This document shows positions 4,792 through 63,542 of a stretch of DNA of 64,000 nucleotides, piece after piece. How positions within the stretch are numbered: position 1 is the first letter of the stretch; the number at the start of each line of letters is the position of its first letter. Below the pieces are notes generated by a model, which saw only the letters and a list, made by a program, of their open reading frames with translations, was not told where the DNA came from and searched no databases. This DNA comes from an uncultured Chloroflexia bacterium (lineage in GTDB: Bacteria; Chloroflexota; Limnocylindria; Limnocylindrales; CSP1-4), in assembly GCA_963780425.1 (NCBI GenBank), contig CAWABZ010000012.1:6284-70283 (forward strand). Direction: 5' to 3'. Position numbers and translations under genes: made by a program.

Positions 4792-6316
4792 ATGCCGCAC
4801 GTCATCGGCATCGACGTCTCGACGACCGCGACCAAGGCTGTCGTCGTCGATAGCTCGGGCGCGGTCGTCGGCAGCGGCGCGTCCGCGTACGACTTCGAGG
4901 TACCGCGACCCGGCTGGACGGAACAGCACCCCGGCCTGTGGTGGGACGCCACGGTCGCCTCCCTCCGGCTCGGTCCTGGCGAGCACGGGCATCGCCGCCG
5001 ACGAGGTGGCGGCGATCGGACTGACCGGCCAGATGCACGGGGCGGTCCTGCTCGATGCCGCGGACACCGTCCTGCGACCGGCGATCCTGTGGAACGACCA
5101 GCGCACCGCCGAGGCGTGCGACGAGATCCGGGCCGCGCTCGGACGGGAGCGCTTGATCGCGATCACGGGGAACGACGCGCTGACCGGGTTCACGGCACCG
5201 AAGCTCGTCTGGGTGCGCGACCACGAACCGGAGATCTGGGCACGGGTCGCCCATGTGCTCCTCCCCAAGGACTACGTCCGGCTGCGGCTGACCGGGGAGC
5301 ACGCGCTGGACAAGGCCGATGGCGCGGGCACCCTGCTGTTCGACCTCGCGCGACGCGACTGGTCGCCGGAGGTGCTCGCCGCGCTCGGAATCGATCCGGC
5401 CTGGCTGCCGCCGACGTACGAGGGACCCGTGGTCACTGGGTCCGTGACGAACGAGGCGGCCGCAGCGACCGGGCTGCGGGCGGGCATACCGGTCGTCGCG
5501 GGTGGCGGCGACCAGGCGGCCAATGCGGTCGGTGTCGGCGCGGTCAGCGCCGGTGTCGTGGCCCTGTCGCTCGGGACGTCGGGGGTGGTCTTCGCCACGA
5601 CCGACGAGCCGCTTCGGGACCCGGCGGGACAGGTCCACGCGTTCTGCCATGCCGTTCCCGGCCGCTGGCACATGATGACCGTGATGCTGTCGGCGGCGGG
5701 CAGCCTGCGCTGGTTCCGCGACGCGCTCGCACCGGGCGAGGACTTCGGGTCGCTCGCAGCGGCCGCCGCCGAGGTCTCCCCCGGCAGCGACGGCCTGCTG
5801 TTCCTGCCGTACCTGACCGGGGAGCGGAGTCCGCACCCGGATCCGCTGGCGCGCGGTGCGTTCGTCGGCCTCACGATCGGTCACGATCGACGGCACATGA
5901 CGCGCGCCGTGCTCGAGGGTGTCGCGTTCGGACTACGCGACGGGCTCGACCAGATGATCGCGGCCGGCATGCCGGCCCCGTCCCAGGTCCGGGCTTCGGG
6001 CGGCGGCACGGCCAGCCCGCTGTGGCGCCAGATCCTGGCCGATGTGCTCGGCGCCGAGCTGGCGACGGTCAGCACCACCGAGGGCGCGGCCTATGGTGCC
6101 GCCATGCTTGCGGCGGTCGGGGCCGGCTGGTTCGAGTCCGTGGAGGCCGCCGCCCGAGAACTGGTCAGGGTCAGCCCGGCGGCATCACCGGGGCCGGATG
6201 TCAAGCGATATGCAGACGCGCACGAGGCGTACCGCGAGCTCTACCCGGCGCTCGCGCCGACCTTCCACCGGACCGCCGAGCGCACGGGCGCCAGCGCCCC
6301 AGAAGTCGACCGCTAG
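4792..6316 (+). CDS. xylB: Xylulokinase (FGGY kinase), apparent +1 frameshift near 4961-4975
   Basis: N-terminus MPHVIGIDVSTTATKAVVVD...WWDATVASL is in one frame. The rest (VLASTGIAADEVAAIGLTGQMHGAVLLD ... to stop at 6316) is in the +1 frame. Confidence 0.85.
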
Positions 6317-7107
6317 CCGCGCAGCTCGAGTTGCGCGAGCTCCGTCTGACTGGCCTCCTTGGGCCGCTTGCCGAGGATGATCATCCCGAGCACCTCATCC
6401 GGGGTCACGTCGGCCTTGTTCACGATGTCGACGATCCGGCCGTGGTACATGACCGCGATCCGCTCGGAGAGATCGAACACGTCGTGGATATCGTGGCTGA
6501 CCAGGAAGATCCCGATGCCCTCACCCTTGAGCTGGCGGATCAGGTCACGCACGCTCGCCGTCTCGGCCGGACCGAGCGCCGCCGTCGGCTCGTCCATGAT
6601 CAGGATCCGCGCATTGAAGTAGACCGCACGGGCGATGGCGACGGCCTGGCGCTGCCCGCCCGACAGCGACTTCACCGGCAGCGCGAAGCGGGTGAAATTC
6701 GGGTTGAGGCGGCCCATCACCTTGCGAGTCTCGGCCTCCATGCTCGAGTCATCCAGGCTACCGAGGCGCGTCGTCAACTCCCGCCCGAGGAACAGGTTGG
6801 CGGGGGCATCGATGTTGTCGGCGAGGGCCAGTGTCTGGTAGATCGTCTCGATGTTGTAGGCCTTGGCATCGCGCGGGTTGGTGATGACGACGGGCTTCCC
6901 GTCGATCCTGATCTCACCCGAGTCCGCCGGGTGGGCACCCGACAGGACACGCATCAACGTGGACTTGCCTGCCCCGTTCCCCCCGACCAGCCCGACGACT
7001 TCGCCGGCTTGCAGATCGATGGTGACATCCTCGACGGCGTGGACGCCGCCGAACGCGACGTTGACGTCGCGCATCTCGACGAGCGGCGGTGCCGCGACTG
7101 TCGTCAT
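6313..7107 (-). CDS. Sugar ABC transporter ATP-binding protein (single-ATPase CUT2-like)
   Basis: 264 aa with Walker A (GGNGAGKST), signature (LSGGQRQ) and Walker B ([11 protein letters not shown]). Confidence 0.9.
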
Positions 7108-7117
7108 CTGTCGCCTC

Positions 7118-8441
7118 TCATGAGCTGCTACGCCGGCGGTTGAAGGTGTCGAAGCCGACCGCGAGGATCAGCACGATCCCCGCCACGATGTTCTGGCCCG
7201 GGGAGTTGACGCCGATGAAACTCAGACCGTACGCGAGCGACGCCAGCACGAAGGCGCCCAGGACTGCGCCTGGGATGGTCCCGATGCCGCCGGCGAACGA
7301 GGTGCCGCCCACGACGGCCGCGGCGATCACATAGAGCTCGTAGCTCTGGCCGACATCGAGAGTGGCACCGTTGAGCCGCGCGGATGCGATGGCGGCAGCG
7401 AGGGCACACAGCACGCCCATCAAGACGTAGGTCTTCAGGATCGTCCAGCGGGTATTGATGCCGGCCAGCTCTGCGGCGTCTGGGTTGCCTCCGTAGGCGT
7501 AGACGTACCGCCCGAACCGTCGCCGGTTGGCGATGAATGTCATCACGAGGGTCACGCCGATCAGCAGCATGATCGGGTACGGGAAGCCGGTCGGGATCTT
7601 CCAGCCGCCTGCGGGCGCCGGCCCCCAGTTCTGCTCGATCGCGATCCGATTGGCGAGGCCCTGCGGCCAGAGGTTCGCATTGGCGAACGCGGCCACTCCG
7701 AGGACTGCGACGCAGCCGATCACCCCGAGCAGCACCTCCGCCCACATCGGCCGCAGCGGGAAGCCGAACCTTCGCCGCTGTCGTCGGCCGTTGATGAGCA
7801 ACCCGATGATCGCCACGCTTCCGATGATGCCGACGACCCAGGTCGCCGGGCCCCCGATGGAGCCGATCGCTCCGCCGCCGATCAGCTGGAAATCCCGGTC
7901 CAGCCCGGATACCGCGGCGCCGCTCGAGAGGTACCACACGAAACCGCGGATCGTGAGCAGACCGCCCAGCGTGACGATGAACGAGGGCACCCCGACGTAG
8001 GCGATGATGAAGCCCTGCAATCCACCGATGGCGGCGCCCATGAGCGATTCCCATGCCGAGGGCGATGACCCAGCGGAAGGGGAAGTCAGCGGGCAGGCCC
8101 AGCACGTCGGGCAGGATCTCGGTCATCAGGAGCGCATAGGTCATGGCGATGATGCCGACCAGCGATCCCACCGAAAGGTCGATGTTGCGCGAAACGATGA
8201 CCAGGACCATGCCGGTCGCGATGACGGCGATGCCCGACGCCTGGACGGCCAGGGTGACCATGTTGGTGGGCTGGAAGAACTTGCCCCCGCTCAGGATGTT
8301 GAACGTGAGGAGGATCGCCGCCAGCGCGACCAGCATCCCGAACAGGCGGAGATCGATCTCCGTCGCCGCGATGAGTCCGCGGATCGAGGTGCGAGGCGGC
8401 GCCTGCGCCTGACCCGGAGCCGCGTCGGCCACGTTCGTCAC
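7118..8441 (-). CDS. Sugar ABC transporter permease (XylH/branched-chain-type), frameshifted by a 13-nt insertion near 8035-8053
   Basis: N-terminal half (NIDLSVGSLVGIIAMTYALLM ... WVIALGMG) is in one frame. The C-terminal half (AAIGGLQGFIIAYVGVPSFIVTLGG...) is in another. The junction shows duplicated cccatg flanking agcgatt. GTG start at 8441 with GGGAGG RBS. Confidence 0.8.
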
Positions 8442-11057: not shown

Positions 11058-11058
11058 A

Positions 11059-12154: not shown

Positions 12155-13996
12155 CGCAGCGCGAGGGCGATCGCGTCCTTGCCGCAAGTGGACCCGATCT
12201 TGCGTCCTTCGACGTCGTCGCTGGGCACATGGATACCCATGAAGAGCCGGGAGATCCCGGCCTGGTCCGCCGCGTCGAAGTAGGTCGCCCACTGGATCGT
12301 CGTGTCCTGGGTCGGTCCTTCCTCGTGCAGCAGGTCGCCCTTCTTGACCGTAAAGCTGGTGATCCCGCCTGGGAAGTACGCGTCGCCGGTGAACGCCGTG
12401 AGGACCTCGGCCGCGGCCCTGCTGAACGTGCTGTGCCCCGACGGATAGCCTGCGAACGCGGGGGTCACGAACGTGCTGCGCTGGTAGGGGACCCAATCGA
12501 CCGCCCGGATCCAGCCGACTCCGCTCGTCTGCGTCTTCGGATCCTTCGGGAACCCGCGCCAGGCATTGATGGCGATCTCGCCGACATGACCGGACAGCCC
12601 GGCATGCCGCTGCCCGGCCGCGCTGGATTCCGGGGTGATGACCTCGATGAGGCCGGGCTCGAGCGGCAGTCCCTGCGTGTCGTACGACGGTCCGGCAGGG
12701 TCACTCGACTGCCCCTTCCCGCCCATGAAGCGGATCTGCGAGATCGGACGGGACGAGTCGTAGAAACCCTTCACGCCCCACGTCGCGATCGCCGCGTCGT
12801 GGACCGCGCCGTTCAGTGCCAGGTACAGCTTGACGTCCCATTCGAGCCGATCGACCGGCTCGCCCTGGCCACCGATGCGGAACGCGAAGCCCGGACTGTC
12901 CGAGACCTCGTTGGCGAGCACATTCCAGTGACCGGGCGGCGTCTCCGATTTCGGCCCGTCCGCCCAGTACTCGGCGAGGGCCCGGGCGAAATCGGCCTGC
13001 AGCACAGCGTGCGGCTCGTACGGCTGCCCGGTGGCCGGGTTGACATCGTGGCCGTTCCCGTCGTTGGCGCCAAGGGTGTTATCGCCGAAGGCACCCGGGC
13101 TGATGTCGATCGTCACGCCATTGGTGGCGTCCAGCAGATGGCTGCGTCGGATGATCTCGACCGCCTCGTCCTTGAATGCCTTATCCGTAGCGGCGTCTCC
13201 CAGCTGCGGCGGCGGCCCCGGGTCGATCGGGGTCCCGGCGTCGGAGGGCGGCAGCGCGAACGACGTCACGTGACCCCAGTACGGCCCGATGAACGTTTGG
13301 ACCTTGCCCGGGGATCGGCAGCCCGTTCTGGGAGATCTGCTTGTCGAGCGCCAATGGCTGCCAGTGGTTCGGGTCGGTCATGACCGTCCCGGGCTCGGTG
13401 ACGACCAGCGGCTCGTTCTTCGGCGCGTAGGTCGGGTCGGCGTACCGCTCCTCCTCGTGCGCGCCGTCCTTCCGACCGAACTCGATCACGGCCGCGCCGA
13501 TGCGATTCCCGAGCTGGGCCGGGTTGTCTCCGTCGATCGAGGTGTAGTCGGTCCGGTAACACAGGCTGTCCATCGTCGCGGTCAGCTGCTGGGTCGCGGC
13601 CGGCAGGTCGGACACCGTGCCGTAGCGCCAGAGCAGGATGCGGTAGGCCGCGTAGCTCATCGCGATCTCGCGGGCGGCGTCCGGCTGGTCGGCCCGCAGC
13701 TTCTCGGTCACGAACAGCCCGTCCGCGGTCTCGTCATAGGCGGCCCACGCATCCCACATCGCGGCCGAGACGTGGAAGAGATTGCGCGCATGCACGGTCG
13801 GCGCGGGGACCACCTGCCGGATGAGCTCGAGCGTCTGGTCATCCCAGACGCGAGCCACGGATCTGCCCCCGAGGTCGCCACGGGTGCATGCCTCGGCCAC
13901 GAACGGCGGCCTCGCGTCACCGCAGGCGCCCAGCAGGGCGGCCATCAACGCGAGCGCCGAGACTGCCGCGACAGTCCCCCCTCGCAATCGATTCAT
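12127..13996 (-). CDS. PAP2-superfamily / vanadium-haloperoxidase-like secreted protein, +1 frameshift in a G/C homopolymer near 13307-13313
   Basis: The two ORFs (13181-13996 and 12127-13269) form one protein. N-terminal signal/lipobox (LLGACGD). C-terminal PAP2 motifs PSGHS and SRLFMGIHVPSDD (SRx5Hx3D). Junction PIPGQ / KVQTFIGPYWGHV. Confidence 0.7.
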
Positions 13997-14123: not shown

Positions 14124-15827
14124 GTGCCACCGCCCGTGTCGACCACCACCCGCGCTCGAGGCGTTACCCGCGGTGCTCGGCTGGTCGTGATCGCGCTGGT
14201 GGTCGTCGCCCTCGTGGCCGGGGGTCTCCTCGTCGTCCGGGCCCTGTCACCGGCGGGATCCGTCGCATCGGGGCCGCCTGTCGCGCTTGATCCGCCGCAC
14301 CTCATCGAGGAGGCGGTGGAGGCCGGAATCGAGCACACGTATGCGGGGGATTACCCGTACGTCGTCGGTGGCGGCGTCGCGGCGTTCGACTGCGACGACG
14401 ACGGGCAGACGGATCTCTACCTGGCGGGCGGGGAGGGCAACGCGGGGCTGTACCGCAACCGGAGCGAGATCGGCGGCGCGCTCCGGTTCGAGCAGGCCGC
14501 GGATCCCTCGACGGACCTGCCATCGGTCACCGGGGCGTACCCCGTCGACATCGACGGGGACGGTCATATCGATCTGGCCGTGCTCCGACTCGGCGAGGAC
14601 GTGATCCTGCGCGGCCTCGGCGACTGCCGGTTCGAGCGGGCCAACGAGTCGCTCGCCTTCGATGGGGGAAGCGGCTGGACCGTCGGGTTCAGTGCGACAT
14701 GGGAGTCGCCGGGGGCGGCCCTGCCGACGCTCGCCTTCGGCGACTACCTGACGCTCGACGAGCAGGGCGAACCGGCGAGCGCATGCGCGGACGACCGGCT
14801 CGTGCGACCTGCGATGTCGGATATGACCTACGCCGAGCCCGTCGCGCTGACGCCGAGCTGGTGCACGCTCTCGATGCTCTTCAGCGACTGGGACCGGTCG
14901 GGCCGGCGCGATCTGCGGGTGTCCAACGACCGCCACTACTACCGGGACGGCGAGGAACAGCTGTGGCGGATCGAGGCCGGTCAGGCGCCGCGGCTCTATA
15001 CGCGCGCCGAGGGCTGGGCCCTGCTGCGGATCTGGGGCATGGGCATCGCCAGCCAGGACCTCACCGGCGACGCGTACCCGGAGGTCTACCTGACCAGCCA
15101 GGCCGACAACAAGCTGCAGACCCTGGCGGACGGCCCGACGCAGCCGCGATACGAGGACATCGCGCTGCGGCGCGGGGTGACCGCCCACAAACCCTTTGCC
15201 GGCGGTGACCCACAGGCGTCTACGGCCTGGCATCCGGCGTTCGAGGATGTCAACAACGATGGGTTCACGGACCTGTATGTCAGCAAGGGCAACGTCGAGA
15301 CCCAGACCGAGTACGCCGCGAAGGACCCCAGCAACCTGTTGATCGGCCAGGCTGACGGCAGCTTCGTCGAAGGCGCGCCGGCGGCGGGGATGGTCGGCTA
15401 TGACCGGGTCCGCGGGGCGGCACTCGTGGACCTGAACGGGGACGGGCTGCTGGACGTGGTCCAGGTCGCCCGGCGCGCGAACGTCAAGCTGTGGCGGAAC
15501 GCTGGGTCGGGCGACCGGCAAACGACACGACCGATGGGCCACTGGATCGCCGTGGACCTCCAGCAGGAGGGCTCGAATCGCGATGCCATCGGCTCGTGGA
15601 TCATGGTCCGCACCGGCGGGACGCAGGTCGAGCGCGAGGTCACGGTCGGTGGCGGGCACGCCAGCGGTCAGCTGGTCCCGATCCACTTCGGCCTCGGCGC
15701 CGCCGAGCGTGCGGACGTCCGCGTCACCTGGCCGGACGGCGAGGTCGGCCCGTGGATGCCGGTGGACGCGGACCGGGTCGTACGTATCGAGCGAGGCGCG
15801 ACGGCCGCTCAGCCGGTGAGCCCGTAG
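14124..15827 (+). CDS. FG-GAP repeat / ASPIC-UnbV domain protein (CRTAC1-like), N-terminal membrane anchor
   Basis: 567 aa with Ca-binding loops (DIDGDGHIDL, DVNNDGFTDL, DLNGDGLLDV) and a C-terminal ASPIC/UnbV segment (GGGHASGQLVPIHFGLG). Confidence 0.8.
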   Translation: MPPPVSTTTRARGVTRGARLVVIALVVVALVAGGLLVVRALSPAGSVASGPPVALDPPHLIEEAVEAGIEHTYAGDYPYVVGGGVAAFDCDDDGQTDLYLAGGEGNAGLYRNRSEIGGALRFEQAADPSTDLPSVTGAYPVDIDGDGHIDLAVLRLGEDVILRGLGDCRFERANESLAFDGGSGWTVGFSATWESPGAALPTLAFGDYLTLDEQGEPASACADDRLVRPAMSDMTYAEPVALTPSWCTLSMLFSDWDRSGRRDLRVSNDRHYYRDGEEQLWRIEAGQAPRLYTRAEGWALLRIWGMGIASQDLTGDAYPEVYLTSQADNKLQTLADGPTQPRYEDIALRRGVTAHKPFAGGDPQASTAWHPAFEDVNNDGFTDLYVSKGNVETQTEYAAKDPSNLLIGQADGSFVEGAPAAGMVGYDRVRGAALVDLNGDGLLDVVQVARRANVKLWRNAGSGDRQTTRPMGHWIAVDLQQEGSNRDAIGSWIMVRTGGTQVEREVTVGGGHASGQLVPIHFGLGAAERADVRVTWPDGEVGPWMPVDADRVVRIERGATAAQPVSP

Positions 15828-15841: not shown

Positions 15842-17228
15842 ATGACGACGGCACCCCACGCCCGTCTCGCCGAGGTCGCGCTGCCGGACTTCGGCCGTTC
15901 GTCGACGACGCCCGAGCGTCCCGGCGTCCGTCTACGGCCAGCGCATGGAGCGGCTGCGCGAGCGGATGGAGCAGCGCGGCTACGACCGCATCGTCGTATA
16001 TGCGGACCGCGAGCACAGCGCGAACCTGGCATATCTGACCGGGTTCGATCCGCGGTTCGAGGAGGCGATCCTCGTGGTCGGCGACGCTACCGAGCCCGCG
16101 ATCCTCGTCGGCAACGAATGCTTCGGGATGGCCGGCGCGGCGCCGCTCCCGATGCGTCGCGAGCTGTACCAGGACCTGAGCCTGCCCGGTCAGCCGCGCG
16201 ACCGATCGCGGCCCCTGTCCGACATCCTCGCGGGCGAGGGCGTGAATGACGGTGCCCGTGTCGGCGTCGTCGGCTGGAAACCGTACGCGGACACGTCGAT
16301 GCTCGACGTGCCGTCCGTCTTCGCGGACGAGCTCCGGGCGCTGACGGGGTCTCGCGGCTCGGTCGAGAACGCAGTCGACCTCCTGATCGATCCGAGTGAC
16401 GGCCTGCGGGTCATCAACGAGGTGGAGCAGCTGGCGGCGATGGAGGCCGCCGCGTGCACGACATCGAGCGGGGTCCGTTCCGTGCTGACCGGTCTGCGGC
16501 CAGGCATGCGCGAGCGCGACGCGGTCGCGCTGCTCGGTTGGGACGGCTCCCCGTTGTCGTGCCACCTGATGCTCACCGCGGGACCGCGCGCCGCGTTCGG
16601 ACTGCTCAGCCCGGGCGACCGGCCGATCGAGCGCGGGGACCCGTTCACTGTCGCCTTCGGGATCTGGGGCGCGCTCACCTGCCGCGCGGGCTTCGTCGTC
16701 GAGGACGCGACCGACCTGCCCGCTGCGATCGGCGACTACGTCGAGCGGCTGGTCGGCCCGTACTTCACCGCGGTCGCCGAGTGGTATCGCGCGCTGCACA
16801 TCGGCCAGACCGGCGGGGCACTGCACGCGATCATCGACCGCCACCTCGGCGAACCGTTCTTCGGCATCTTCCTCAACCCGGGCCACCAGATCGGGCTCGA
16901 CGAATGGGTGAACTCGCCGATCCGCCCGGGCTCGTCGATCGAGCTCCGCTCGGGCATGGCGTTCCAGGTGGACATCATCCCGGCGACCGGGACGCCATAT
17001 TTCACATCGAACATCGAGGACGGTATCGCCCTCGCCGACCAGTCGCTCCGCGCCGCCTTCGCCAGCGGCTATCCGGAGGCGTGGGCCCGGATCCAGGCGC
17101 GACGGCGGTTCATGGCCGAGGCCCTGGGCATCGAGCTGCACCCGGACGTGCTGCCGTTCTCCAACATCCCGGCCTATCTCCCGCCGTTCCTGCTGCGGCC
17201 CGACCGGGTCATGACGCTGACCGCGTGA
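15842..17228 (+). CDS. M24 family metallopeptidase (creatinase/Xaa-Pro aminopeptidase-like), probable +1 frameshift near 15921-15930 in the N-terminal leader
   Basis: Creatinase-N-like and pita-bread domains from MERLRERMEQRGYDRIVVYA onward (ATG 15945). The preceding in-phase-shifted ORF (ATG 15842, MTTAPHARLAEVALPDFGRSSTTPERP) reads like the native N-terminus. Confidence 0.75.
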
Positions 17229-18061
17229 CGCCGCCGCCATCGGCCGGGGGCGGCGCCCCGCTGGTCCTGCGCACCGGCGCGGACACGCTGACGATCGACG
17301 CCGGCGTCGGAGCGCGGTTCGCCTCGTTGAAGGTGAGGGGCCACGAGATCCTCGTCACCGAGGGTGCCGGGCCGATCTGGTGGGGCTGCTACCCGATGGT
17401 CCCGTTCGCGGGCAGGATCCGCGATGGGAGCTTCACGTTCGCCGGCCGCGTCCACCAGCTGAAGCGCAACCTGCCGCCCCACGCCATCCACGGGACGGTA
17501 TTCGACCGCCCGTGGCGCGTCGTGTCGCACGGCCTGGACAGGGCGACGCTGGCGGTCGATCTCGGTCCCGGCTGGCCGTTCGCCGGCCGGGTCACCCATG
17601 AGATCTCGCTGCAGCCGGGTGGCCTCGACGCGACCCTGACCCTCGAGGCGGACGACGAGATGCCCGCCTGGCTCGGCTGGCATCCGTGGTTCCGGCGCCG
17701 GGTCGGCGACGCGGCCGTCGAGCTCGAGTTCGACGCGTCATCGATGTACGTCCGGGGTGTCGACGGGCTGCCGACAGGCGCGCGATCGCGCCCCGGCCCG
17801 CGCCCGTGGGACGACGCGTTCACCGGCGTGCGCGCGCCTCCGCGCCTGCGCTGGCCGGGCGTCCTCGAGCTCGAGATGACCTCGACCGCCGACGTCTGGG
17901 TCGTATTCGACGAGCGCGCCGAGGGCATCTGCCTCGAGCCTCAAACCGCGCCTCCCGATGCGATCAACCTCGCCGAGGCCGACGGAACCGAGCCGCCCAC
18001 CGCGGCGCCGGGGCGCGCACTCTCGGCGTCGATGGCGTTCCGGTGGTCGGTCAGCGCCTGA
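17225..18061 (+). CDS. Aldose 1-epimerase (galactose mutarotase-like) family protein
   Basis: GTG start overlapping the upstream stop (GTGA). Conserved mutarotase-fold residues (HGTVFDRPW). Confidence 0.7.
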   Translation: MTPPPSAGGGAPLVLRTGADTLTIDAGVGARFASLKVRGHEILVTEGAGPIWWGCYPMVPFAGRIRDGSFTFAGRVHQLKRNLPPHAIHGTVFDRPWRVVSHGLDRATLAVDLGPGWPFAGRVTHEISLQPGGLDATLTLEADDEMPAWLGWHPWFRRRVGDAAVELEFDASSMYVRGVDGLPTGARSRPGPRPWDDAFTGVRAPPRLRWPGVLELEMTSTADVWVVFDERAEGICLEPQTAPPDAINLAEADGTEPPTAAPGRALSASMAFRWSVSA

Positions 18062-24201: not shown

Positions 24202-24244
24202 GGCGATCCTCACTTGTGCGTGTTCATCGGGGTTGGTCCCGATC

Positions 24245-24697: not shown

Positions 24698-24795
24698 GTT
24701 GGCACGCTACGCCATCCGCGGGGCGTGTGCTCAGCCCGCCTCCGTCGACAACTCCGGATCGCGCGGAACATACTCGCGCCATCGACGGATGTGGA

Positions 24796-27334: not shown

Positions 27335-27402
27335 CATGCCGACGAGTCCTTTCTCTATGCGCGATCTGAGCATCCGGGCCGACCCGCTCGCGAGGCAAGA
27401 GG

Positions 27403-27890: not shown

Positions 27891-27919
27891 GCCGAGGAGA
27901 CTCAAGGACCGAAGTGCGA

Positions 27920-47569: not shown

Positions 47570-48459
47570 TGGTCGATGTCGACGAGCGCCTCAGCGCGGC
47601 GGTGCCGGCACCGATGCCGACCGATGCGCCGGTGGCCATCGAGGTCGCACGGCCTGGGCGTCCAGTACAGCCTCCGGTTCACCCGCAAGACGACGCTCCA
47701 CCGCTCGTTCGTGAACCTGTTCCGGCGCCAGCCGGCCGATCGAGTTCTGGGCTCTCCGGGACGTCGATTTCCGGCTGGTCCACGGGGAGTCGCTGGCGGT
47801 CATCGGCCCGAACGGGGCGGGCAAGAGCACGCTCCTCCAGGTGCTCGCCGGGATCATCACGCCATCGGAGGGCGTGGTGGAGGTCGATGGCCGGATCTCG
47901 AGCCTGCTGACGCTCGGTGCCGGCTTCGACCAGGAGCTGTCCGGTCTCGACAACATCCGCCTGGCCGGTGCGTTCCTCGGCCTCGACCCGGCGCTCATGC
48001 GCCAGATCACCCCGGGCATCATCGAGTTCGCCGACATCGGCCCGTTCATCGACGCGCCGATCAAGACCTACTCGTCCGGCATGCGTGCCCGCCTGGGCTT
48101 CGCGATCGCCACCTCGGTCGACCCGGACATCCTGCTGCTCGACGAGGTGCTCGCCACCGGCGACCAGGTCGTTCCGCACGAAGTCGAAGCAGCGCGTGCT
48201 CGACCTGGTCAAGGGCGCCAAGGGCGTCGTGCTCGTGACCCACGACATGAACTGGGTCATGGAGTTCTGCAACCGGGCGATCCTCCTCGAGGGGGGCCGG
48301 ATCGTGGCCGAGGGCGACCCCGCCGAGGTCGTCGCGATCCACCGCGAGCATTCCGAGCGGACCAAGGCCGAGCGCGAGGCCGCGCTGGCCCGCGCCATCG
48401 CCGACGCCGGGCAGGGATCGCTGCCACCGGATGCAGCCCGGAGCCGCCTGCCGGGCTAG
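47569..48459 (+). CDS. Polysaccharide export ABC transporter ATP-binding protein (Wzt-like), three apparent +1 frameshifts (~47647, ~47743, ~48172)
   Basis: Consecutive frames carry MVDVDERL..PVAIEV / RGLGVQYSLRFTRKTTLHRSFVNLFRRQPADR / [32 protein letters not shown]...LLLDEVLATGDQ / SFRTKSKQRVLDLVKGAKGVVLVTHDMNWV. Confidence 0.8.
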
Positions 48460-55082: not shown

Positions 55083-56442
55083 TCAGGCGCGAGCCGACCA
55101 GCCGGCCCCGAGCCGAAGGACCTGGCGCGACCGAAGTGACCGGCCGTGGGAGCTGTCGACGGTATCGACGACGAGCTCGGCTCTGTCGAAGAGGCGCGCC
55201 CAGTCGACCGACCGATGCGCCGTGACGACGACAACCACGTCCGAGCCGTCGACCAACTCGTCGAGTGACACTCCCCGATACTCGCTGCCGTCGGCGGCCC
55301 GGAAGGTGTCGACGTGCGGGTCGTGGAACGTGACACTCGCGCCACGTGCGAGAAGCCCCGCGATGACCCCCGCCGCCGGGGAGTTCCGGGCGTCGCGGAC
55401 GTTCGGCTTGAAGGCGACGCCGACGACGCCCACCCGCGCGCCCTTGAGCGCCTTGCCACGGTCGTTCAGCGCCTCGGCCACGAGGTCGACGACGTGACGC
55501 GGCATCGCAAAATTGATGTCTCCCGCGAGCTCGACGAATCGATCGATGAAGTCGAACTCCCGTGCCCGCCACGCCAGGTAGTACGGATCGACCGGGATGC
55601 AGTGACCGCCGACGCCGGGTCCCGGCGTGAACCGCATGAACCCGAATGGCTTCGTGGCGGCCGCGTCGATGACCTCCCACACGTCCAGGCCCATCCGCTC
55701 GCACAGCAGGGCAAGCTGGTTCACGAATGCGATGTTCACGTTGCGGAACACGTTCTCGAGCAGCTTGGCCAGCTCCGCGGCGTCGGGCGACGAGAGCTCG
55801 ACGACCCGCGTGTTGATCCGGCCCGAGGAGCGCGGCGGCTCGCCGTGTCGCGTCGGGGGTCGTCGCACCGACGAGCCGCGGGATGTCCTTTGATGCGCTG
55901 GCCGGGTCACCGGGACTGACGCGCTCCGGCGCGAACGCGAGATCGAAATCGACGCCGGCGCGGAGACCGCTGCGCTCGAGGGCCTCGCGGAACGGGCCGG
56001 TCGTCGTCCCGGGAAACGTCGTCGACTGGAGGACGATGAGCTGGCCCGGACGCAGCCGGCTGCACAGGTAGTCGGCGGCGCCGAGGACCGGGCCGAGGTC
56101 CGGATCCTTGGTCGTCGTGATCGGGGTGGGGACGCACACGAACACCGCGTCGACCGCCGCGACATCGGCGTCCTCCGTGGCCATGATCCGGAGCCCGCGC
56201 TCCAGGCCGCGCCCGAGTCGCTCGTCGTCGATGTCGTCGATCGGTGACCGACCGGCCCTGAGCTCCTCGACCCGCGCCGGGCTTGCATCGAGCCCGACGA
56301 CGTCGAGGCCCGCTTCGCTGAACGCGAGGGCCAGTGGGATCCCGACGTAACCGAGGCCGACGATCGCGATCCGCGTGTCAGTCGCTGCCGTTGCGTCAGC
56401 GACTGCCGCTGCCTCGGTCGATGTGGGGGGCATGTTTGTCAT
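55083..56442 (-). CDS. UDP-sugar (UDP-GlcNAc/ManNAc-type) 6-dehydrogenase family protein, +1 frameshift near 55790-55830
   Basis: N-terminal Rossmann fold IAIVGLGYVGIPLALAFSEAGLDVVGLD...VFVCVPTP (56442 frame). Central and C-terminal domains KLLENVFRNVNIAFVNQLA...GPGVGGHCIPVDPYYL... in the 55083-56288 frame. Confidence 0.85.
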
Positions 56443-58151
56443 CGTCGCACAGGCTCCGTGGACGCGTCCTGACGGTCGGCCAGCCAGCGCCGCGACCCGG
56501 GTGCCAGGTTGGTCCGACCCGTCTCGCCGAGCGCCTCGAGCGCGGCCTCGAGGTCGCCGACGTCGGCCGGGACGATCACGACCCGCCCGTCCGGGTGTCC
56601 CGCGGCGAGCTCGTCCCAGTGTGTCGTGATCGCATCTCGGAACGCGCTACGGGCATCCGGTGACCGTGTCCCGGTCAGCCGGCGGACCCAGCGCTCGCTG
56701 CGGGTCGTCCGGGGAGTGGCATCGGGCGCGACGACCGCCACCGGCAGTCGCCCGCTGGTGAGATGGCTCGCCGACAGGCGGTCGGCGCCGTGGGCGGCAA
56801 CGAACAGCGCGGCCACGATCGGCTTCGAGGATGGGGCGGCTTGACCCGGCGGCGGTCCGGCTCGCGGCGTGGCCGGCGACCGACCCGCGGCACGGCGCAC
56901 CTCGTCGTAGAGCTCCAGCGTCCGCGTCGCGACTGCCGCGGGCGAGAAGCGGTCCTCGATGCTGGCACGCATCGCATCCCGATCGATCTCCGCGAGCCGA
57001 TCGCGGAGTCGCAGGATCGCATCGGCCAGGGCGTCCGGCGTCGCGTCGGTGGCGATCTCCCCGAAGCGTCCGTCCTCTCCCACGATGTCCTCGACCCCAC
57101 CCGACGGCGTAGCCGCGACCGGAAGGCCGGACGCGAGCGCCTCGGCCGCGACCATGCCGAACGTCTCGAACGGGCTCGGGTGGACGAAGATGCCGGCCTG
57201 CTGCATCTCCGCGCCGACGACGTTCCGCGCGGCGACCGGCTCGAAGGTGACTGCGTCGCGAATCCCGAGCTCGTCGGCCAGGGCCTGCCATCGGGCGTCC
57301 TCGGCGTTGGTGGCGCTGCCGATCATCCGCAGGCGCAGGGACGGCCGCCGACCATGGGCGACGGCCATCGCCCGCAGGAGCGTGTCGATCCCCTTGTGCT
57401 CGGAGCGGGCGCCGACCCACAGGAGCTGGTCGGCGTCGCGACGCGGTTGTCGCGCAGGCGGGAAGTGGTCCAAGGGCACGGCGTTCGGGACGATGGCGAA
57501 CGGAACCGGCACGGGCTCGCCGTGGTCCGAGAGCGCCGCGGTGACCCGATCCGCCTGGGCCTGGCTGACGGCCACGACCCGTGCAAGGCGCAGGAGGTCG
57601 CGGTAGGCGGCAGCCGCCTCCGGCCGGCGAAGGCGATCGCGAAGGGTCGAGTCGTGCTCGGTGACGACGAGCGGGACGCCCAGCTCGGCCGCCAGCGACA
57701 GCGCCGCGACGCCGTCCGGCAGCCCGTTGTGGGCGTGGATCACATCGATCGGGCGGCCGGACGCGGCACTCCGCGTGGCGAGCGCTCGACCGAACGCCAG
57801 CAGCGGGACGGCGTGGCGGGCCGCCATCTCGGGAACTTCGGATCCGTCGAGGGCTCCCCACGTCCGGATCACCGGTAGTCGCGCGACCGGTGCCCGCGGC
57901 GCCCCGAGCCGCGGCCCGCCATTGCAAGCCGCGGGATCCGCGAGCGCCACCGACCAGGCAACTTCGGCGCGGGCGGCTCGCGCCTTCCGGCGGTCGTCGT
58001 CACCTCGCACCTGGATCGTTTCGAACGAGGCGACGATCGGATCGGCGCCCGCCGCCTGGAGCGCGGCCACGTGGTCGTGGACGAAGCTGCCGCGACCGGG
58101 TGCGTCGAACGACGGGTATGCCCGCGCCACGACGAGCACGCGCAGGCTCAC
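56439..58151 (-). CDS. Glycosyltransferase family 4 with ~170-aa C-terminal extension of unknown function
   Basis: 570 aa, GT4 core (EHDSTLRD ... FETFGMVAAEALASGLPVAAT). Overlaps the dehydrogenase start (ATGA). Confidence 0.85.
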   Translation of the reverse strand: MSLRVLVVARAYPSFDAPGRGSFVHDHVAALQAAGADPIVASFETIQVRGDDDRRKARAARAEVAWSVALADPAACNGGPRLGAPRAPVARLPVIRTWGALDGSEVPEMAARHAVPLLAFGRALATRSAASGRPIDVIHAHNGLPDGVAALSLAAELGVPLVVTEHDSTLRDRLRRPEAAAAYRDLLRLARVVAVSQAQADRVTAALSDHGEPVPVPFAIVPNAVPLDHFPPARQPRRDADQLLWVGARSEHKGIDTLLRAMAVAHGRRPSLRLRMIGSATNAEDARWQALADELGIRDAVTFEPVAARNVVGAEMQQAGIFVHPSPFETFGMVAAEALASGLPVAATPSGGVEDIVGEDGRFGEIATDATPDALADAILRLRDRLAEIDRDAMRASIEDRFSPAAVATRTLELYDEVRRAAGRSPATPRAGPPPGQAAPSSKPIVAALFVAAHGADRLSASHLTSGRLPVAVVAPDATPRTTRSERWVRRLTGTRSPDARSAFRDAITTHWDELAAGHPDGRVVIVPADVGDLEAALEALGETGRTNLAPGSRRWLADRQDASTEPVRR

Positions 58152-59537
58152 TGCGTCGCCAACCGGGCATAGAGCGCGATGAGCTCCGCGCTTTCTCGCT
58201 CCCAGCAGTACCGCTCATGGGCGGCGTGCTGGCAGCGCCGCCGCAGGTCGGCCATCGCCGCATCGTCGAGCGACAGGATCTCGCCGATGGCGCCTGCGAC
58301 CGCTGCCGGACGCGTCGGGTCGCATACCGCGCCGAGCGGACCGTCCGGGTCGTCGATCACGATCCGGCGGCGCTCTGAGAAATCGCTGCTCACGACCGGC
58401 GTTCCGACAGCGAGGCTCTCGAAGAGCTTGTTTGGCGTCGAGTAGCGCTCGTTGAGCGTCCGTGGCTGGTTCGGCATCGCCGACACGTCGGCCGACGCGA
58501 CCCACGCGAGGAGCTCATCCGAGGGCACGGCAGGCAGGACGTGCAGCCGGCCACCGAAGCGCGGCTCCGCAGCGAGCGCATGAAGCGACTCCGTCAGCGG
58601 CCCGAACCCCAGGAAGACGAGGTGCGCGCGCGCGACCCGCTGGTCCGCCATCGCCTCGGCCAGGACGTCGAGGCCGCGATCGCGCTGGAACCCGCCGTGG
58701 TAGAGCACCACCGGGGCATCCGCCGGGATCCCTGCAGCGGACCGCAGGTGGTCGGGCCGGGTCGCGGCGATGGGCTGGCGCGGTGGGGCATTCCGCACGA
58801 CGACCGCCGGTGGTCCGCCGTACCGCCGCCGCAGCTCAGCGGCGATCGAGGCATTGACGGTGACGATGCCGTCGACGCCGGCGATCCAGCGGCGTTCGAG
58901 CCGGCCGAGGATGCGGCGCACCCACCACGGCTGGCGCGCCTCGACGCCGGCCTCGAGGAACAGCTCGTGGCTGTCGTAGATCACCGTCACGGAGCGATCG
59001 TCTCGGCGCGCTGCGCGGACGGCGGCCGGCAGGCCCGTCAGGTCGTGGCCGTGGTAGACGTCGGCGGGCGGGGCTTGCGGCTGCGGCCGCCGTCGCCCAG
59101 CCCAGAGCCGACAGGCGCCACCACGCCAGGTGATCGAGACCGTCTTCGACGTCATGCGGACGGGGCCGTGCCCGTCGGCTGGCGACGTATCGAGCCGCCT
59201 GGATCAGCGTGTACGGCAGAGTGACAAGCGAGACGGCCACCACGCCGAGCGCATCGCCGATGCCCGAGGGGCCAGAGCGGAGTGCCCGAGCGAAGGCGCG
59301 AGGCACGCCCCGGAGCGCGCGCCACGGGTAGTAGCGCATGTCCCGCCAGCGCACCCGCCAATCCGCCGGAGCCGGCACGCGGATGATCTGCACGCCGTCA
59401 CGGTCCTCGTGATCCGGCGGCGCGTCCGATCCGCCCGGTTGGAGGGCCACGATGGTCGTCGGCCAGCCGGCCGCGTGAAGCGTCGCCGCCTCGCGCAGGA
59501 CCCGGACGTCATTGGTACACGGGTTGCGGACGAACAT
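58148..59537 (-). CDS. Glycosyltransferase family 4, +1 frameshift near 59135-59160
   Basis: N-terminal domain MFVRNPCTNDVRVLREAATLHAAGWPTTIVAL (frame of 58836-60137). C-terminal ADVYHGHDLTGL...STPNKLFESLAVGTPVV in the 58148 frame. Confidence 0.75.
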
Positions 59538-59575
59538 GACCACGGCCTGGCGATCCACGGTGCCGGCCGCGGGAC

Positions 59576-60949
59576 TCACCAGCGACGGCCGGTCAACCGG
59601 CTGTATTCGGCGAAGAGTCGGTCCGCCTGGTTCTCCCAGTTGTACGTCTCGTGGGCCGCGGCCAGCGCGCGCCGCCGCCACGCTGCGGCTTCGTCTGGCG
59701 GGGCGTCGAGGATCTCCCGGCAGGCCGCGGCGATCGCGGCCGCATCGGTAGGATCCACCACCAGCCCGCAGCGGGTCTCGCGGACGATCGGCGCCATACC
59801 GGGGAGGTCGCTCGCGACGACCGGCACACCGGCGGCCATCGCCTCGAACAGCTTGTTCGGCGTCGTGAGCCGGTGGTTGAGCGTCGTCGGCTGGATCGGC
59901 ATCGCCACCACATCGGCCCCGGCGACCCAGTCGAGCAGCTCGATCGGGCGGACCGCGGCAAGCAGATGGACGCGCCCGCGCAGCTCCGGAGACGCGGCGC
60001 GCTCGCGGTAGGCTGCCTCCTCGTAGCCGTAGCCCATGAGCACGAGCACCGCGTCGTCGATCAAGGTGATCGCGTCGAACAGCTCCTCGATGCCGCGCCC
60101 CGGCGAGAAGCCGCCCTGGTAGAGGACGACGCGGCATGATGGCGCGAGCCCGAGCCGGTCGTGGAACCTACGCTCGCGCGGGTCCGCCGGTTCGTATCGG
60201 TACGAGCAGTTCATCACGACCAGCGGCGTCGGCACCCTGAAGCGCTTGGCCATCACATCGGCGTAGGGCTGGTTGACGGTGATCACACGATCGGCGCGTC
60301 GGGCCCATCGGCGCTCGGCCCGGGCGATGGTCGCGCGCGCCAGTCCGCGCGTGGCGGCGAGGTTTCCCGCGTCCATGTAGATGTCGCGCGCGTCGTACAC
60401 GACCTTCGGCCGCGGCGATTCGCCGTCGGCGATCGCGTGCCCGACCGGGATGCCCATGTAGGCCATCGCGTGGATGAGGTCGGCCGGGGGTGCCGCCTCG
60501 CGCGCATGGCGCGCGTGCGAGCGCACGGTCAGCAGGATCGACCAGCGCCGCACGACGCGGCTCGCGAGACGGCGAGACAGGGAGCGCGAGGCGACGCCGC
60601 GCGGGCGCGTCGAGTCGCACCGGCTGGCCGGCGTCGCCGGCGTCGCCCTGCCGCGCCGGACCGGGGCAGACGGGGGCGCCGAAGCGCCCGCCGGGCTTCG
60701 TTGCGGCCGGATGCGGCGGAAGATGCGGCGCACGAACGCTCGGCCAGGGAGCGCCTCCCCGGGGTCCGCCCGGACCCGGATGATCTCGTAGCCCCCTGGG
60801 TCGACCTCGCGCTCGGGGAGGCCGGGCTTCCAGCGGGCGAGGACCGTCACGTGGTGGCCTCGAGCTCGCGCGGCGCTGGCGATGCGGTACGTCCGCGAAT
60901 CGAATTCAGCGGTCGAGGGGAGAACGAGGAGCAGGCGCTGCGGCTCCAC
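59576..60949 (-). CDS. Glycosyltransferase family 4 (inverted paralogue of 52236-53729)
   Basis: 457 aa, intact. Confidence 0.9.
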   Translation of the reverse strand: MEPQRLLLVLPSTAEFDSRTYRIASAARARGHHVTVLARWKPGLPEREVDPGGYEIIRVRADPGEALPGRAFVRRIFRRIRPQRSPAGASAPPSAPVRRGRATPATPASRCDSTRPRGVASRSLSRRLASRVVRRWSILLTVRSHARHAREAAPPADLIHAMAYMGIPVGHAIADGESPRPKVVYDARDIYMDAGNLAATRGLARATIARAERRWARRADRVITVNQPYADVMAKRFRVPTPLVVMNCSYRYEPADPRERRFHDRLGLAPSCRVVLYQGGFSPGRGIEELFDAITLIDDAVLVLMGYGYEEAAYRERAASPELRGRVHLLAAVRPIELLDWVAGADVVAMPIQPTTLNHRLTTPNKLFEAMAAGVPVVASDLPGMAPIVRETRCGLVVDPTDAAAIAAACREILDAPPDEAAAWRRRALAAAHETYNWENQADRLFAEYSRLTGRRW

Positions 60950-60988
60950 CGGGCCAGGTGCCGCCGGTGGCGCGCCTCGTCGCGTTCG

Positions 60989-62080
60989 TCATCCGAGCGC
61001 CGCCACGATCGCGTCGACGGCGCCGGCGGGTTCCAGCCGGAGGTCGGCGGCCCTGGCCCGGGCGTCGGCCTCTGCCGTCGAGATCGGTGCGAGCCGCTCG
61101 AGCTCCGCTGTCGCGCGCGACGCATCGAGCCCGACCATGACCATCGTGCCGCCCGAGTCCGCCAGGGCCTCCACCCATTCGGTCGTCCCGCGCAGGATCA
61201 GGCACGGGACGTGGAGCCACGCGGCCTCGCGCTGGACGCCGCCCGAATCGGTCAGGACGGCTGCGGCGTGGAGCTGCAGCCCGAGGGTCGTGCGGTACCC
61301 CTGCGGCTCGATGACGCGGACGTCCGGCGACAGCTCGATCGCGGCCGCCTCGAGGGCCGCGCGCGTGCCCGGGTGCAGCGCCAGGATGACCGGGCGCTCC
61401 GGGCGCGCGACCCGGTTCAACAGGGCGGCCCAAGCCGTCATCGCATCGGGCTCCCGGTTCTCGGCCCGATGGATCGTGGCGAAGAGGTACCCGCCCGGGA
61501 TCAGGGCCAGGTCGACCGAGCCGAGGACGGCCGGATCCCTAACCTCGCGGGCGGTCCGCGCGGCGAGGTCCTGGAGCACGTCCCCGACCTCGACGACGCC
61601 ATCGACGATCCCCTCGGCACGGAGATTGGCGACGGCCGCGGGTGTGGGCGCGAACAGCCATCGCGACAGGTGATCCGTCACCAGCCGATTGATCTCCTCG
61701 GGCATCCGCCGATCGAACGAGCGCAGGCCGGCCTCCACGTGGGCGATCGGGATGCCTTGCTTGGCCGCCACGAGTGCCGCGGCGATCGTCGTGTTCGTGT
61801 CGCCGCAGACGACCACCACGTCCGGGACAGGTCCTCGAGTATCGGGTCGAGCGCGATCAGCATCCGGCCCGTCTGGGCCGAACCCGAACCACCACCGATC
61901 CCGAGGTCGTAGCTCGGGCCGCCGCAGGCCGAGCTCGCGGAAGAACGACCCGGCCATCGCGTCGTCGTAGTGTTGACCGGTGTCGATGAGGTCGTGTCGA
62001 ACCGCGCCCGAAGGGCCGGCTCGAGCGCGGCGGCCTTGATCAGCTGGGGACGCGTCCCGACGACGTTGGCGATCCGCACG
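60989..62080 (-). CDS. wecB: UDP-N-acetylglucosamine 2-epimerase (non-hydrolysing), three apparent +1 frameshifts (~61985, ~61895, ~61815)
   Basis: Segments alternate between two frames: VRIANVVGTRPQLIKAAAL...FDTT / LIDTGQHYDDAMAGSFFRELGL / YDLGIGGGSGSAQTGRMLIALDPILEDL / PDVVVVCGDTNTTIAAALVAAKQGIPIAHVEAGLRSFDRRMPEEINRLVTDHLS... GTG start 62080. Confidence 0.85.
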   Translation of the reverse strand, partial: RADRQRRRDASPADQGRRARAGPSGAVRHDLIDTGQHYDDAMAGSFFRELGLRRPELRPRDRWWFGFGPDGPDADRARPDTRGPVPDVVVVCGDTNTTIAAALVAAKQGIPIAHVEAGLRSFDRRMPEEINRLVTDHLSRWLFAPTPAAVANLRAEGIVDGVVEVGDVLQDLAARTAREVRDPAVLGSVDLALIPGGYLFATIHRAENREPDAMTAWAALLNRVARPERPVILALHPGTRAALEAAAIELSPDVRVIEPQGYRTTLGLQLHAAAVLTDSGGVQREAAWLHVPCLILRGTTEWVEALADSGGTMVMVGLDASRATAELERLAPISTAEADARARAADLRLEPAGAVDAIVAALG

Positions 62081-63542
62081 TCGGCCTCGTCAGTCGACGG
62101 CGTCGCGCGCGGGCCGCTGGTCGTCGGCACCCCCACGCCGCGATAGGCGACGCCGGGGCCGAGCCGCTCGACGAGCGGCGACAGGCTGTTCCGGCCGTCG
62201 TAGACGACCCGCAGTCCGGGGAACCAGGCCGGGTCCAGGTCCAGCCACGCAGGATCGCCCGTCTGGGTGACGATCGCGCGGACATCGGGCGAAGGGGAAC
62301 CCCACGGCCACGGCTCGGCGCCGGCTCGCGTCGATCTCGTCGACACTCAGCAGCGGGTCGTACGCGAGCACCCGCGCGCCGCGTGCGCGGAGCCCGTCGA
62401 TGAGCGGCGTCGCCCGCGAGTACGCCAGCTCCTTGACCCCGTGGCGATAGGTCAGGCCGAGCACGAGGACCGCCGCCCCGGTGAGGTCGCCCGCAGCGTC
62501 TTCGACAGCCGCGACAGCGAGGTCGACCTGGCCGTCGTTCACTTCACGCGCACGCGCGACGAGCGACAGCTCCGGCGCGCGATCGAGCAGGAAATGCGGA
62601 TACACCGGGATGCAATGCCCGCCGACCCCGATCCCGGGCTGGTGGATGTGGCTGTACGGCTGGCTGTTGGCCGCCGCGATCACCTCGGTGATGTCGACGC
62701 CGATGCGATCGGCGTACCGGGCGAACTCGTTCGCGAGCGCGATGTTCACGTCGCGGTAGGTGGTGTCGGCGAGCTTCGAGAACTCGGCAGCTTCCGCCGA
62801 CGACATGGCGACGACCTCCGCGTCGAGCACGCTCTCGTAGAACGCGGCGGCGAGAGCCGTCGACGGACGCGTCGAGGCCACCGACGAGCTTGGGGTACGT
62901 CGCCAGGTTGGCGAGCGCGGCGCCGCTGTACAGCCTCTCGGGCGAGAAGGCGACGTGGATCCGGTCCGTGCCCGACCCGCTGGCCGGCAGACCGCTGGCG
63001 GCCTCCAGTCGAGGTGCGTACCGGTCGCGCGTATCGCCGACGGGCAGGGTCGTCTCGAAGATCACGAGGGAGCCGGCGTGGACGCCGGGCGCGATCGAGT
63101 CGACCGCGGAGTCCATCCAGCGGTGATCGGGATGCTGGCTCGCATCGAGCATGACAGGGACGATCAGGACCACCACGTCTGCCGCGCGCGCCGCCTCGGC
63201 GCCGTCGGCGGTCGCCCGGAGCCGGCCGGTGGCGTGGGCACGCGCCACGAGCTCAGCGAGACCCGGTTCCTCCCCGACATGGGAGCGACCCTCGTTGATC
63301 GAGTCGACGACACGCGGGTCGATGTCCACGGCGACGACGTTCCAGCCGTGCCCGGCGAACTGCGCGGCGAGCGGCAGGCCCATCTTGCCGGCACCCACGA
63401 CGGCCACCGTCCCGGCCGTGCCGGGCTCTCCGGTCCATGGCGAGACGGACCGTGCCTCGCTGTGACGACACGGCCGCGGCGGCAACTGGATCGAGCCGCC
63501 GGACAGATCTCCCGTGGAGCTGGGTCGGGTCGATGGGCTCAC
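62081..63542 (-). CDS. UDP-sugar dehydrogenase family protein (WecC/UDP-ManNAc dehydrogenase-like), two apparent frameshifts; reads through into wecB without an in-frame stop
   Basis: N-terminus VAVVGAGKMGLPLAAQF (frame 62544-63542). Middle GIGVGGHCIPVYPHFLL (frame 62090-62881). C-terminus RAIVTQTGDPAWLDLDPAWFPGLRVVYDGRNSL (frame 61678-62346). GTG start overlaps the upstream stop (GTGA). Confidence 0.8.

Follow-up and report, generated by a model that had tools for sequence, protein, structure and literature searches.

Many conserved genes in a 64,000-nt stretch of contig CAWABZ010000012.1 (assembly GCA_963780425.1, an uncultured Chloroflexia bacterium; the whole stretch is referred to here as the window) can be read only by hopping between reading frames. 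We verified 22 single-base disruptions of the coding frame in 16 genes, 18 consisting of one extra base and four of one missing base, and all 22 could be reversed by one-base edits. These frame hops are very probably indel errors in the consensus of a metagenome-assembled genome (MAG) made from long reads only, arising at assembly or polishing, and not pseudogenes. An earlier note on this DNA had described the frame hopping, and a model of codon-position G+C, Pfam, tblastn and alignments bore it out. The same note put the affected genes at 25-30, more than the 16 found here, and held that every junction that could be reconstructed carried an insertion, whereas four of the 22 are one-base deletions (30093-95, 40294, 42106 and 61824/25). 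The excess of insertions is nevertheless real (18/22, binomial p = 0.004). Each of the 21 coordinate entries listed in the note has a real site within 0-85 nt, mostly at a small offset; the larger ones concern 59135-59160, where the change was found at 59075/76 (~60-85 nt away), and 62290, found at 62325 (35 nt). The list was not complete, as a sugar permease site at 8044/45 had been missed.

Related loci were collected in a one-genome-per-species scan using an intact GT4 glycosyltransferase of the window as query (45384-46643, minus strand), which yielded 80 loci. The best matches, with a top protein identity of 87%, were all labelled 'uncultured Chloroflexia' (bins of the form MFDxxxxx.bin.x.y, contigs of the form contig_N), Candidatus Limnocylindrales/Limnocylindria, or Chloroflexota. 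The closest relative was contig_4562 (1.79 Mb) of MFD06742.bin.1.113, locus L081, with a nucleotide identity of 93% over 35.5-58.2 kb and of 89% over 5.8-24.8 kb of the window. Gene order across 5.8-24.7 kb is shared with this contig and with contig_3226 of MFD09206.bin.1.191, on which the repaired M24 peptidase of the window finds proteins that are 95% and 87% identical, respectively. The parts of the window with no relatives were 1-5.8 kb and 24.9-35.4 kb.

The coding frame was tracked along the window, whose G+C content lies at 69-73% throughout, by a seven-state hidden-Markov model on codon-position G+C (GC3) in which in-frame stops were penalised. Its segments were compared with the stop-to-stop extents of the open reading frames (ORFs), a stop at the junction denoting an ordinary gene end and a junction with no stop a candidate frame change. 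Same-strand frame changes with no stop were flagged many times, and past the lesions the GC3 codon signal followed the shifted frame undiminished. In Pfam searches, successive pieces of one domain model fell in neighbouring frames on adjacent ORF fragments; for UDPG_MGDP_dh, the N domain lay in one frame and the central and C domains in another, an arrangement that was seen twice. We also ran tblastn with the ORFs of 84 related loci and with database homologues against the window, taking collinear high-scoring segment pairs (HSPs) in different frames as a junction. Such pairs were present at each site with a net length change, +1 or -1, that was constant per site, and up to 62 independent loci supported a single site. 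MAFFT alignments of the DNA, together with a repair scan, pinned each change within 1-8 nt. The scan deleted or inserted one base at each position up to 24-90 nt on either side of the junction, and the resulting translation was scored against at most eight relatives. The lesions are absent from orthologues: 0/22 occur in L064 and L081 (89-93% nucleotide identity) or in any other relative.

The 22 one-base edits were applied to the window and tblastn was repeated. Each of the 14 genes with a full-length relative became a single near-full-length HSP in one frame, at 67-97% identity. The shifted part past each lesion stays open, with an identity to relatives of 64-100% (50-53% in an esterase), and at most sites the identity past the lesion is 80-99% after repair. 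The LCP and Wzt genes, which have three lesions each, are otherwise intact, and neither substitutions nor stop codons were seen as extra damage in the coding frames, where the lesions are 1-nt indels alone. This repaired-sequence test replaced the counting of in-frame stops from tblastn output, which proved too noisy because non-coding frames of the relatives also match in GC-rich DNA.

These properties bear directly on genuine pseudogenisation, one of the explanations that had been offered, according to which genome decay would have truly frameshifted about a quarter of the genes of the region. The lesions are truly in the sequence, and their density is above the average of comparable public contigs. 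Region-wide frameshifted genes are also known from the reductive-evolution pseudogenes of Mycobacterium leprae and of recently host-restricted bacteria, to which the window bears a likeness. However, unlike decay of the M. leprae type, the window shows a single type of lesion, the 1-nt indel, with no mixture of nonsense mutations, large deletions and IS insertions, and it keeps its codon bias and protein similarity past the lesions, with repaired frames that are open over their full length. Even the triple-lesion genes are otherwise undamaged, the affected genes include such housekeeping genes as rph, rdgB and PpiC, and no lesion is common to the closest relatives, as inherited lesions would be. 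Moreover, the 4:1 insertion bias and the context-free placement match Nanopore-only sister contigs and not short-read ones, as described below. Pseudogenisation is contradicted by this open, conserved sequence and by the absence of the lesions in relatives, and we regard it as very unlikely, although individual lesions among the 22 may be real strain-level variants. Biological recoding, in which programmed ribosomal frameshifting or transcriptional slippage would restore the frame in vivo, has nothing in its favour beyond the existence of +1 and -1 changes. Orthologues in up to 62 related loci show no frame change at any site, the contexts are heterogeneous with no common slippery motif, and a gene may hold up to three sites, of both signs; the probability of recoding is therefore practically nil.

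The sequence context of the extra bases bears on the kind of error. One-base length errors that cause frameshifts also arise from homopolymer over- and under-calls by 454, Ion Torrent and Nanopore R9 (see also PMC9262707). The earlier note had offered systematic homopolymer over-calling as one of its options, set against random error, and had described the changes as often lying in short G/C runs. The direction of that option, towards an artefact, is supported, but the homopolymer mechanism is not. Where several candidate bases explained an insertion equally well, the one in the longest run set its run length. On this measure 8, 7, 1 and 2 insertions fell in runs of 1, 2, 3 and 4 nt, where random insertion predicts 8.9, 5.7, 2.5 and 0.9 (chi-square p = 0.46); a base both chosen and placed at random in the window lands in runs of 1, 2, 3, 4 and at least 5 nt in 50%, 31%, 14%, 4% and 1% of cases. 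A few sites do lie in short runs (CCCC/GGG at 13306-13, GGGG at 41225-29 and GGG at 55822-24). In contrast, 15 of the 18 insertions are in runs of 1-2 nt even if the candidate base is picked so as to favour long runs, the 65 homopolymers of at least 5 nt in the window are all unaffected (0/65), and some extra bases are unlike both neighbours, such as the C between GCG and TGG at 39330, gagc[G]tccc at 15918, ggt[C]gca at 47646 and cg[AG]tt. Classical homopolymer miscalling, whether by 454, Ion Torrent, Nanopore R9-type or unpolished PacBio CLR sequencing, is thus extremely unlikely as the source of these changes.

Two further origins of the errors were tried and rejected. Many extra bases stand at a codon boundary beside a different base, as though the second allele of a synonymous single-nucleotide polymorphism had been kept together with the first. 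Among 17 unambiguous sites in the MFD loci described below, however, the ratio of third-position-compatible to first/second-position sites was 12:5, equal to the chance ratio of 2:1, and the corresponding 8:1 in the window was not significant. Errors at GATC methylation motifs were suggested by 8 of the 22 window sites lying within 6 nt of GATC, against a background of 17% (p = 0.025, post hoc), but the MFD loci gave 4/43 and no replication. GATC itself is modestly over-represented in the window, with 685 copies (one per 93 nt) versus 536 ± 18 in dinucleotide-preserving shuffles.

As a control, all 80 related loci were put through the same junction pipeline, every locus being compared with the ORFs of the rest. 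The MFD (Microflora Danica) bins were assembled from Nanopore reads only, using Flye and one round of Medaka (PMC12313526). Across their 28 loci, the well-covered 364 kb held 44 frameshift sites (35 of insertion type and 9 of deletion type), whose positions were non-orthologous between genomes. The mean is ~1 error per 8 kb, with some bins at 1 per 2-3 kb; by locus, the extremes were zero (L001, L002, L003 and L005) and one per 2.6 kb (L009). Among the 52 remaining loci, for the most part MEGAHIT/SPAdes assemblies, 17 sites were found in 559 kb. Several of these recur at the same few orthologous places in different genomes (for example 'cgcc[GG]cg' in L013, L019 and L020, and a site near 9.9 kb in L015 and L020), as expected of differences in gene structure and not of errors, so that short-read MAGs of the clade are essentially free of this type of lesion. 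The ratio of insertions to deletions was indistinguishable between the window and the MFD loci (18:4 vs 35:9, Fisher p = 1.0), while each differed from 1:1 (p = 0.004 and 1e-4), and the MFD insertions, with 20, 8, 5 and 2 in runs of 1, 2, 3 and 4 nt, also fitted random insertion (p = 0.74). The lesions of the window are therefore of the same kind as those of public Nanopore-only sister contigs: single-base, insertion-biased and context-free. The closest relative has broken genes of its own at 14815-15546 and 17164-17652 of its locus, namely a luciferase-like protein of 243 aa versus 304-305 aa and a LysE of 162 aa versus 204-205 aa. Frameshifted genes were likewise observed in the Nanopore-only MAG contigs L009, L012, L042, L054 and L064.

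The same control bears on the idea that the window had been deliberately altered, that is, that single bases were inserted and deleted at random in a correct sequence, for example as a test. Positions and inserted bases do look random with respect to context, and the density exceeds the MFD average. Such an intervention is unnecessary, however, when the public contigs of the nearest relatives, which are unmodified, bear this signature too, down to the 80% share of insertions, and a naive random version would more probably yield equal numbers of insertions and deletions together with substitutions or stops, of which none were seen. We therefore hold deliberate corruption to be unlikely. Four one-base length differences to the nearest relatives were also noticed in non-coding sequence, at ~39080 (upstream of LCP), ~14110 (between the PAP2-like and FG-GAP genes), ~20573 (upstream of the luciferase-like gene) and ~60990 (between wecB and the next GT4 gene). 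With one or two relatives available for each, either the window or the relative could be in error, or the difference could be natural, and as possible indels they fit both an artefact and a deliberate corruption.

The frame breaks are thus best understood as consensus errors. We propose that the window most likely comes from the MAG of a Limnocylindria-type Chloroflexota assembled from noisy long reads only, probably by the recipe published for its closest relatives (Nanopore R10.4.1 reads, metaFlye and one round of Medaka, with no short-read polishing). At modest depth, the consensus step would sometimes keep a spurious base and less often lose a true one; low coverage and/or a mixture of strains may be the cause, and the positions of the errors would be essentially random with respect to sequence context. 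An indel inside a gene shifts its reading frame, and therefore a gene caller gives two to four fragments, while the underlying genes would be intact and presumably functional.

Three points weigh against this explanation. In the window, a site occurs about once every 2.9 kb overall, and the control pipeline, with 12 sites in 21.4 kb, puts the figure at 1 per 1.8 kb; this density exceeds the MFD average by a factor of 4-5, though it is only slightly higher than in the worst MFD locus (L009, 1 per 2.6 kb). A consensus error of Flye/Medaka on R10.4.1 reads that is insertion-biased and context-free was not found described in the literature, and the bias is our own measurement on 28 loci. Finally, the sequencing platform, the coverage and the long-read-only origin of the window are inferred from the taxonomy, the nearest relatives and the error signature.

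We judge the feature to be non-biological, a type of assembly artefact that is known in general but whose context spectrum here departs from the textbook homopolymer picture. Indels in Nanopore consensus sequences are known to yield frameshifted gene calls, about 40x coverage being needed for near-finished genomes (PMC9262707), and frameshift errors are commoner in soil assemblies from Oxford Nanopore reads than from HiFi reads (PMC13087279). The window resembles the Nanopore-only genomes and MAGs in which single-base consensus indels split conserved ORFs, as in the IDEEL test (Sereika et al. 2022, PMC9262707; nanoMDBG paper, PMC13087279), and which likewise consist of long contigs from soil metagenomes, with such frameshifts present in sister Nanopore-only MAGs at other positions. 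It differs from that literature, in which residual errors are mainly in homopolymers, in that the sites of both the window, whose platform we have inferred, and the 28 MFD loci are not linked to homopolymers and are 80% insertions. Nor does it resemble the homopolymer errors of 454, Ion Torrent and Nanopore R9, with sites that are not concentrated in runs and none in a run of at least 5 nt. The control suggests that public Nanopore-only MAGs of this clade are affected in the same way, by errors that lean unexpectedly towards insertions and do not depend on homopolymers. Whether R10.4.1/Flye/Medaka soil MAGs in public catalogues carry a systematic single-base error that is insertion-biased by ~4:1 and independent of context seems to us an even call; if they do, this class of error would fragment a sizeable share of the predicted proteins in such catalogues.

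Read at face value, the frame breaks would imply the loss of xylose utilisation (xylB and the sugar permease), RNase PH, RdgB and the cell-wall LCP ligase, as well as of the Wzm/Wzt exporter and several sugar-nucleotide enzymes of the glycan cluster. The warning that calls on xylose catabolism and on the glycan cluster should not rest on the apparent frameshifts was therefore correct. Gene callers would split the 16 genes into ~38 fragments, and such splitting skews protein catalogues, estimates of completeness, counts of pseudogenes and the calling of pathways. As consensus errors, the frame breaks leave 16 genes to be treated as intact, and the interpretation of the window calls for frameshift-aware translation or for the 22 corrections, which are given below by gene with net changes of +1 for an extra and -1 for a missing base.

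In the first quarter of the window, the xylB-like FGGY sugar kinase (plus strand) has an extra base at 4967-4969, within cc[GGC]tc (+1). FGGY_N matches positions 2-56 in one frame and 59-245 in another, and the three-frame translation reads WWDATVASLR / VLASTGIAADEVAAIGLTGQMHG. This site rests on Pfam because the sole relative spans the C-terminal 150 aa and falls short of the edit. The sugar ABC permease (BPD_transp_2, XylH-like; minus strand) has its +1 change at 8044-8045, in gaatc[GC]tcatg. A homologue (P0068, 417 aa, 84% identical) matches the repaired protein as one stretch and the unrepaired one as two HSPs in frames -3 and -1; loci L081 and L083 put the junction at 8038-8040, in agreement with the repair scan, and after repair one HSP covers q1-463. 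The PAP2/vanadium-haloperoxidase-like protein (DUF6851, VCPO_2nd and PAP2; minus strand) has an extra base at 13306-13313, somewhere in CCCCGGGC (+1). Its domains are split over two ORFs with tblastn frames -1 and -2, whereas in relatives it is a single gene of 622-625 aa and ~150 representatives cross the junction as one stretch; the repaired protein gives one HSP over q10-643 with 96% identity. The N-terminus of the M24 Xaa-Pro aminopeptidase (plus strand) has an extra G at 15918, gagc[G]tccc (+1). Two homologues (P0216 and P0217, 461 aa, 95% identical) align in frame 2 with their residues 1-27 and in frame 3 with 24-461, the repair scan supports the change, and one HSP spans 1-461 at 95% identity after repair.

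The luciferase-like monooxygenase (minus strand) carries two +1 changes. The first, an extra base in cg[CCGG]cg at 21382-21385, splits Bac_luciferase into 16-59 and 60-194, and the DNA alignment sets CTCGCC-GCGATC in the relative against CTCGCCGGCGATC in the window. The second is an extra base in [GCC] at 20943-20945; its junction was found in 6 loci plus L081-L083, and the repair scan used relatives that are 91% identical. With both sites repaired, one HSP covers q1-307 at 93% identity. The PHB-depolymerase-like esterase (minus strand) lacks a base at 30093-30095 (-1). Only the N-terminal half of the Abhydrolase domain is in ORF 30081-30851, homologues P0001-P0062 run from frame -3 into frame -2 with a net change of -1, and the repair scan supports the site; once repaired, one HSP crosses the junction at 43% identity.

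Three changes lie in the LCP gene (LytR_cpsA_psr; plus strand). At site 1 (39329-39330) a C has been added between GCG and TGG (+1); 23 loci show a net +1 without exception, and DNA alignment and repair scan agree. Site 2 (39852-39853), ct[CG]cgg (+1), is supported by 27 loci, by the DNA alignment and by the Pfam match, which is split into 2-47 and 50-147. At site 3 (40294) a base is missing (-1), the window reading GGATC-GGCGGG against GGATCGGGCGGG in relatives, with a net -1 in all 26 loci, the DNA alignment and the repair scan in support. The three repairs give one HSP over q31-488 with 96% identity. In rdgB (Ham1 family NTP pyrophosphatase; minus strand), an extra base lies in cg[TGGGG]ac at 41225-41229 (+1). 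This site was found with 47 loci and in the alignment to L001; Ham1p_like reaches only 1-132/186 in the unrepaired frame, and one HSP over q8-241 results from repair. The rph gene (RNase PH; minus strand) lacks a base at 42106 (-1), as shown by a net -1 in all 49 loci, the RNase_PH matches at 2-68 and 60-127 and the DNA alignment; the repaired protein gives one HSP over 1-277 at 97% identity. The PpiC-type peptidyl-prolyl isomerase (SurA-like; minus strand) has a +1 change at 43879-43880 (42 loci, a split Rotamase domain and the DNA alignment) and yields one HSP over q28-656 with 94% identity once repaired.

The exporter genes follow on the plus strand. Wzm, an ABC-2 permease, has a C inserted between CGG and ATC at 47174-47176 (+1), as seen with 62 loci and in the DNA alignment, and the C-terminal part of ABC2_membrane is found solely in the second frame. 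The ABC ATPase Wzt has three +1 changes, each seen in the DNA alignment and the repair scan. Sites 1 (47646, extra C, ggt[C]gca) and 2 (47743-47744, cg[AG]tt, in flanks that are 98% identical to L004) have tblastn junctions, and site 3 (48167-48168, extra G, ca[GG]tc) is supported by 59 loci. With the three repairs one HSP covers 1-329 at 95% identity.

The remaining sites are on the minus strand. In the UDP-glucose/GDP-mannose dehydrogenase, GG has become GGG at 55822-55824 (+1; 34 loci and the DNA alignment), which places the N domain and the central and C domains in separate frames. The GT4 glycosyltransferase at 58151-59593 has an extra base in gc[AA]gc at 59075-59076 (+1). Seven loci and the DNA alignment support it, a wide repair scan finds the same optimum and one HSP over q12-494 follows repair, but its position is less certain because the region is poorly conserved. 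In wecB (UDP-GlcNAc 2-epimerase), a base is missing at 61824-61825 (-1), the DNA alignment with L004 setting CTGTC-CCGGAC in the window against CTGTCGCCGGAC. The Epimerase_2 match begins at model position 68 with the N-terminus in frame -2, and repair raises the identity from 88% to 97%. The wecC-like UDP-sugar dehydrogenase has two +1 changes: an extra base in [CCG] at 62864-62866 (site 1; 9 loci, N and central domains in different frames), and an extra G at 62325 (site 2; 11 loci and the repair scan, with UDPG_MGDP_dh_C truncated at 47/103). Repair gives one HSP over q12-472. In the repaired wecC the frame stays open into wecB; the TGA with which relatives end the gene is there, though in another frame. 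This suggests that the unconserved wecC tail (62100-62160, minus strand) may hold a further one-base deletion, a suspected and so far unlocalised 23rd change of the -1 type. Thus, of the three sites that the earlier note had placed in wecB, one was found, next to this suspected change.

Other candidates turned out to be ordinary. The homocysteine methyltransferase, whose N-terminus had been listed as affected, has no junction, and S-methyl_trans matches 2-283/283; the long neighbours described as intact are indeed so. GC3 frame changes with a stop codon at the junction were assigned to ordinary gene boundaries (977, 7122, 8528, 17219, 19984, 36000-36400, 37148, 41033, 41645, 42383, 43549, 45434, 49358, 50329, 55102, 56446, 58150, 59593, 60993 and 63547), and the one at 9555 to noise, as relatives show no junction there. 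An AraC (24248-24706) and a glyoxalase (23773-24288) were considered as a single frameshifted gene, and they are ordinary overlapping ORFs because all three relatives carry two separate genes (150 and 143 aa).

Gene order with the three closest relatives stops exactly at a tRNA-Pro(TGG) gene (24796-24871, minus strand). The ~10.5 kb beyond it (24.9-35.4 kb) have a lower G+C content (0.667-0.676) and encode a PRC-barrel protein, the PHB-depolymerase-like esterase, a 371-aa protein with no Pfam match, a PD40 beta-propeller and an ECF sigma factor. A JGI metagenome scan brought up no relatives for two proteins of this segment. The segment resembles a genomic island integrated at tRNA-Pro; no integrase was found in it. 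Within it, ~2.5 kb (27227-29700) gave no convincing GC3 coding signal and no Pfam match for ORFs of at least ~100 aa on either strand. Near the start of the window, a vapBC pair (2587-3295, minus strand) encodes an AbrB/MazE-type antitoxin and a PIN toxin, and the antitoxin ORF (124-126 aa) overlaps the start of vapC by 107 nt. A frameshift in vapB had been thought probable; its homologues from Limnocylindrales and metagenomes (101-124 aa) have the same long, variable C-terminal tail, and the overlap therefore appears to be a family trait.

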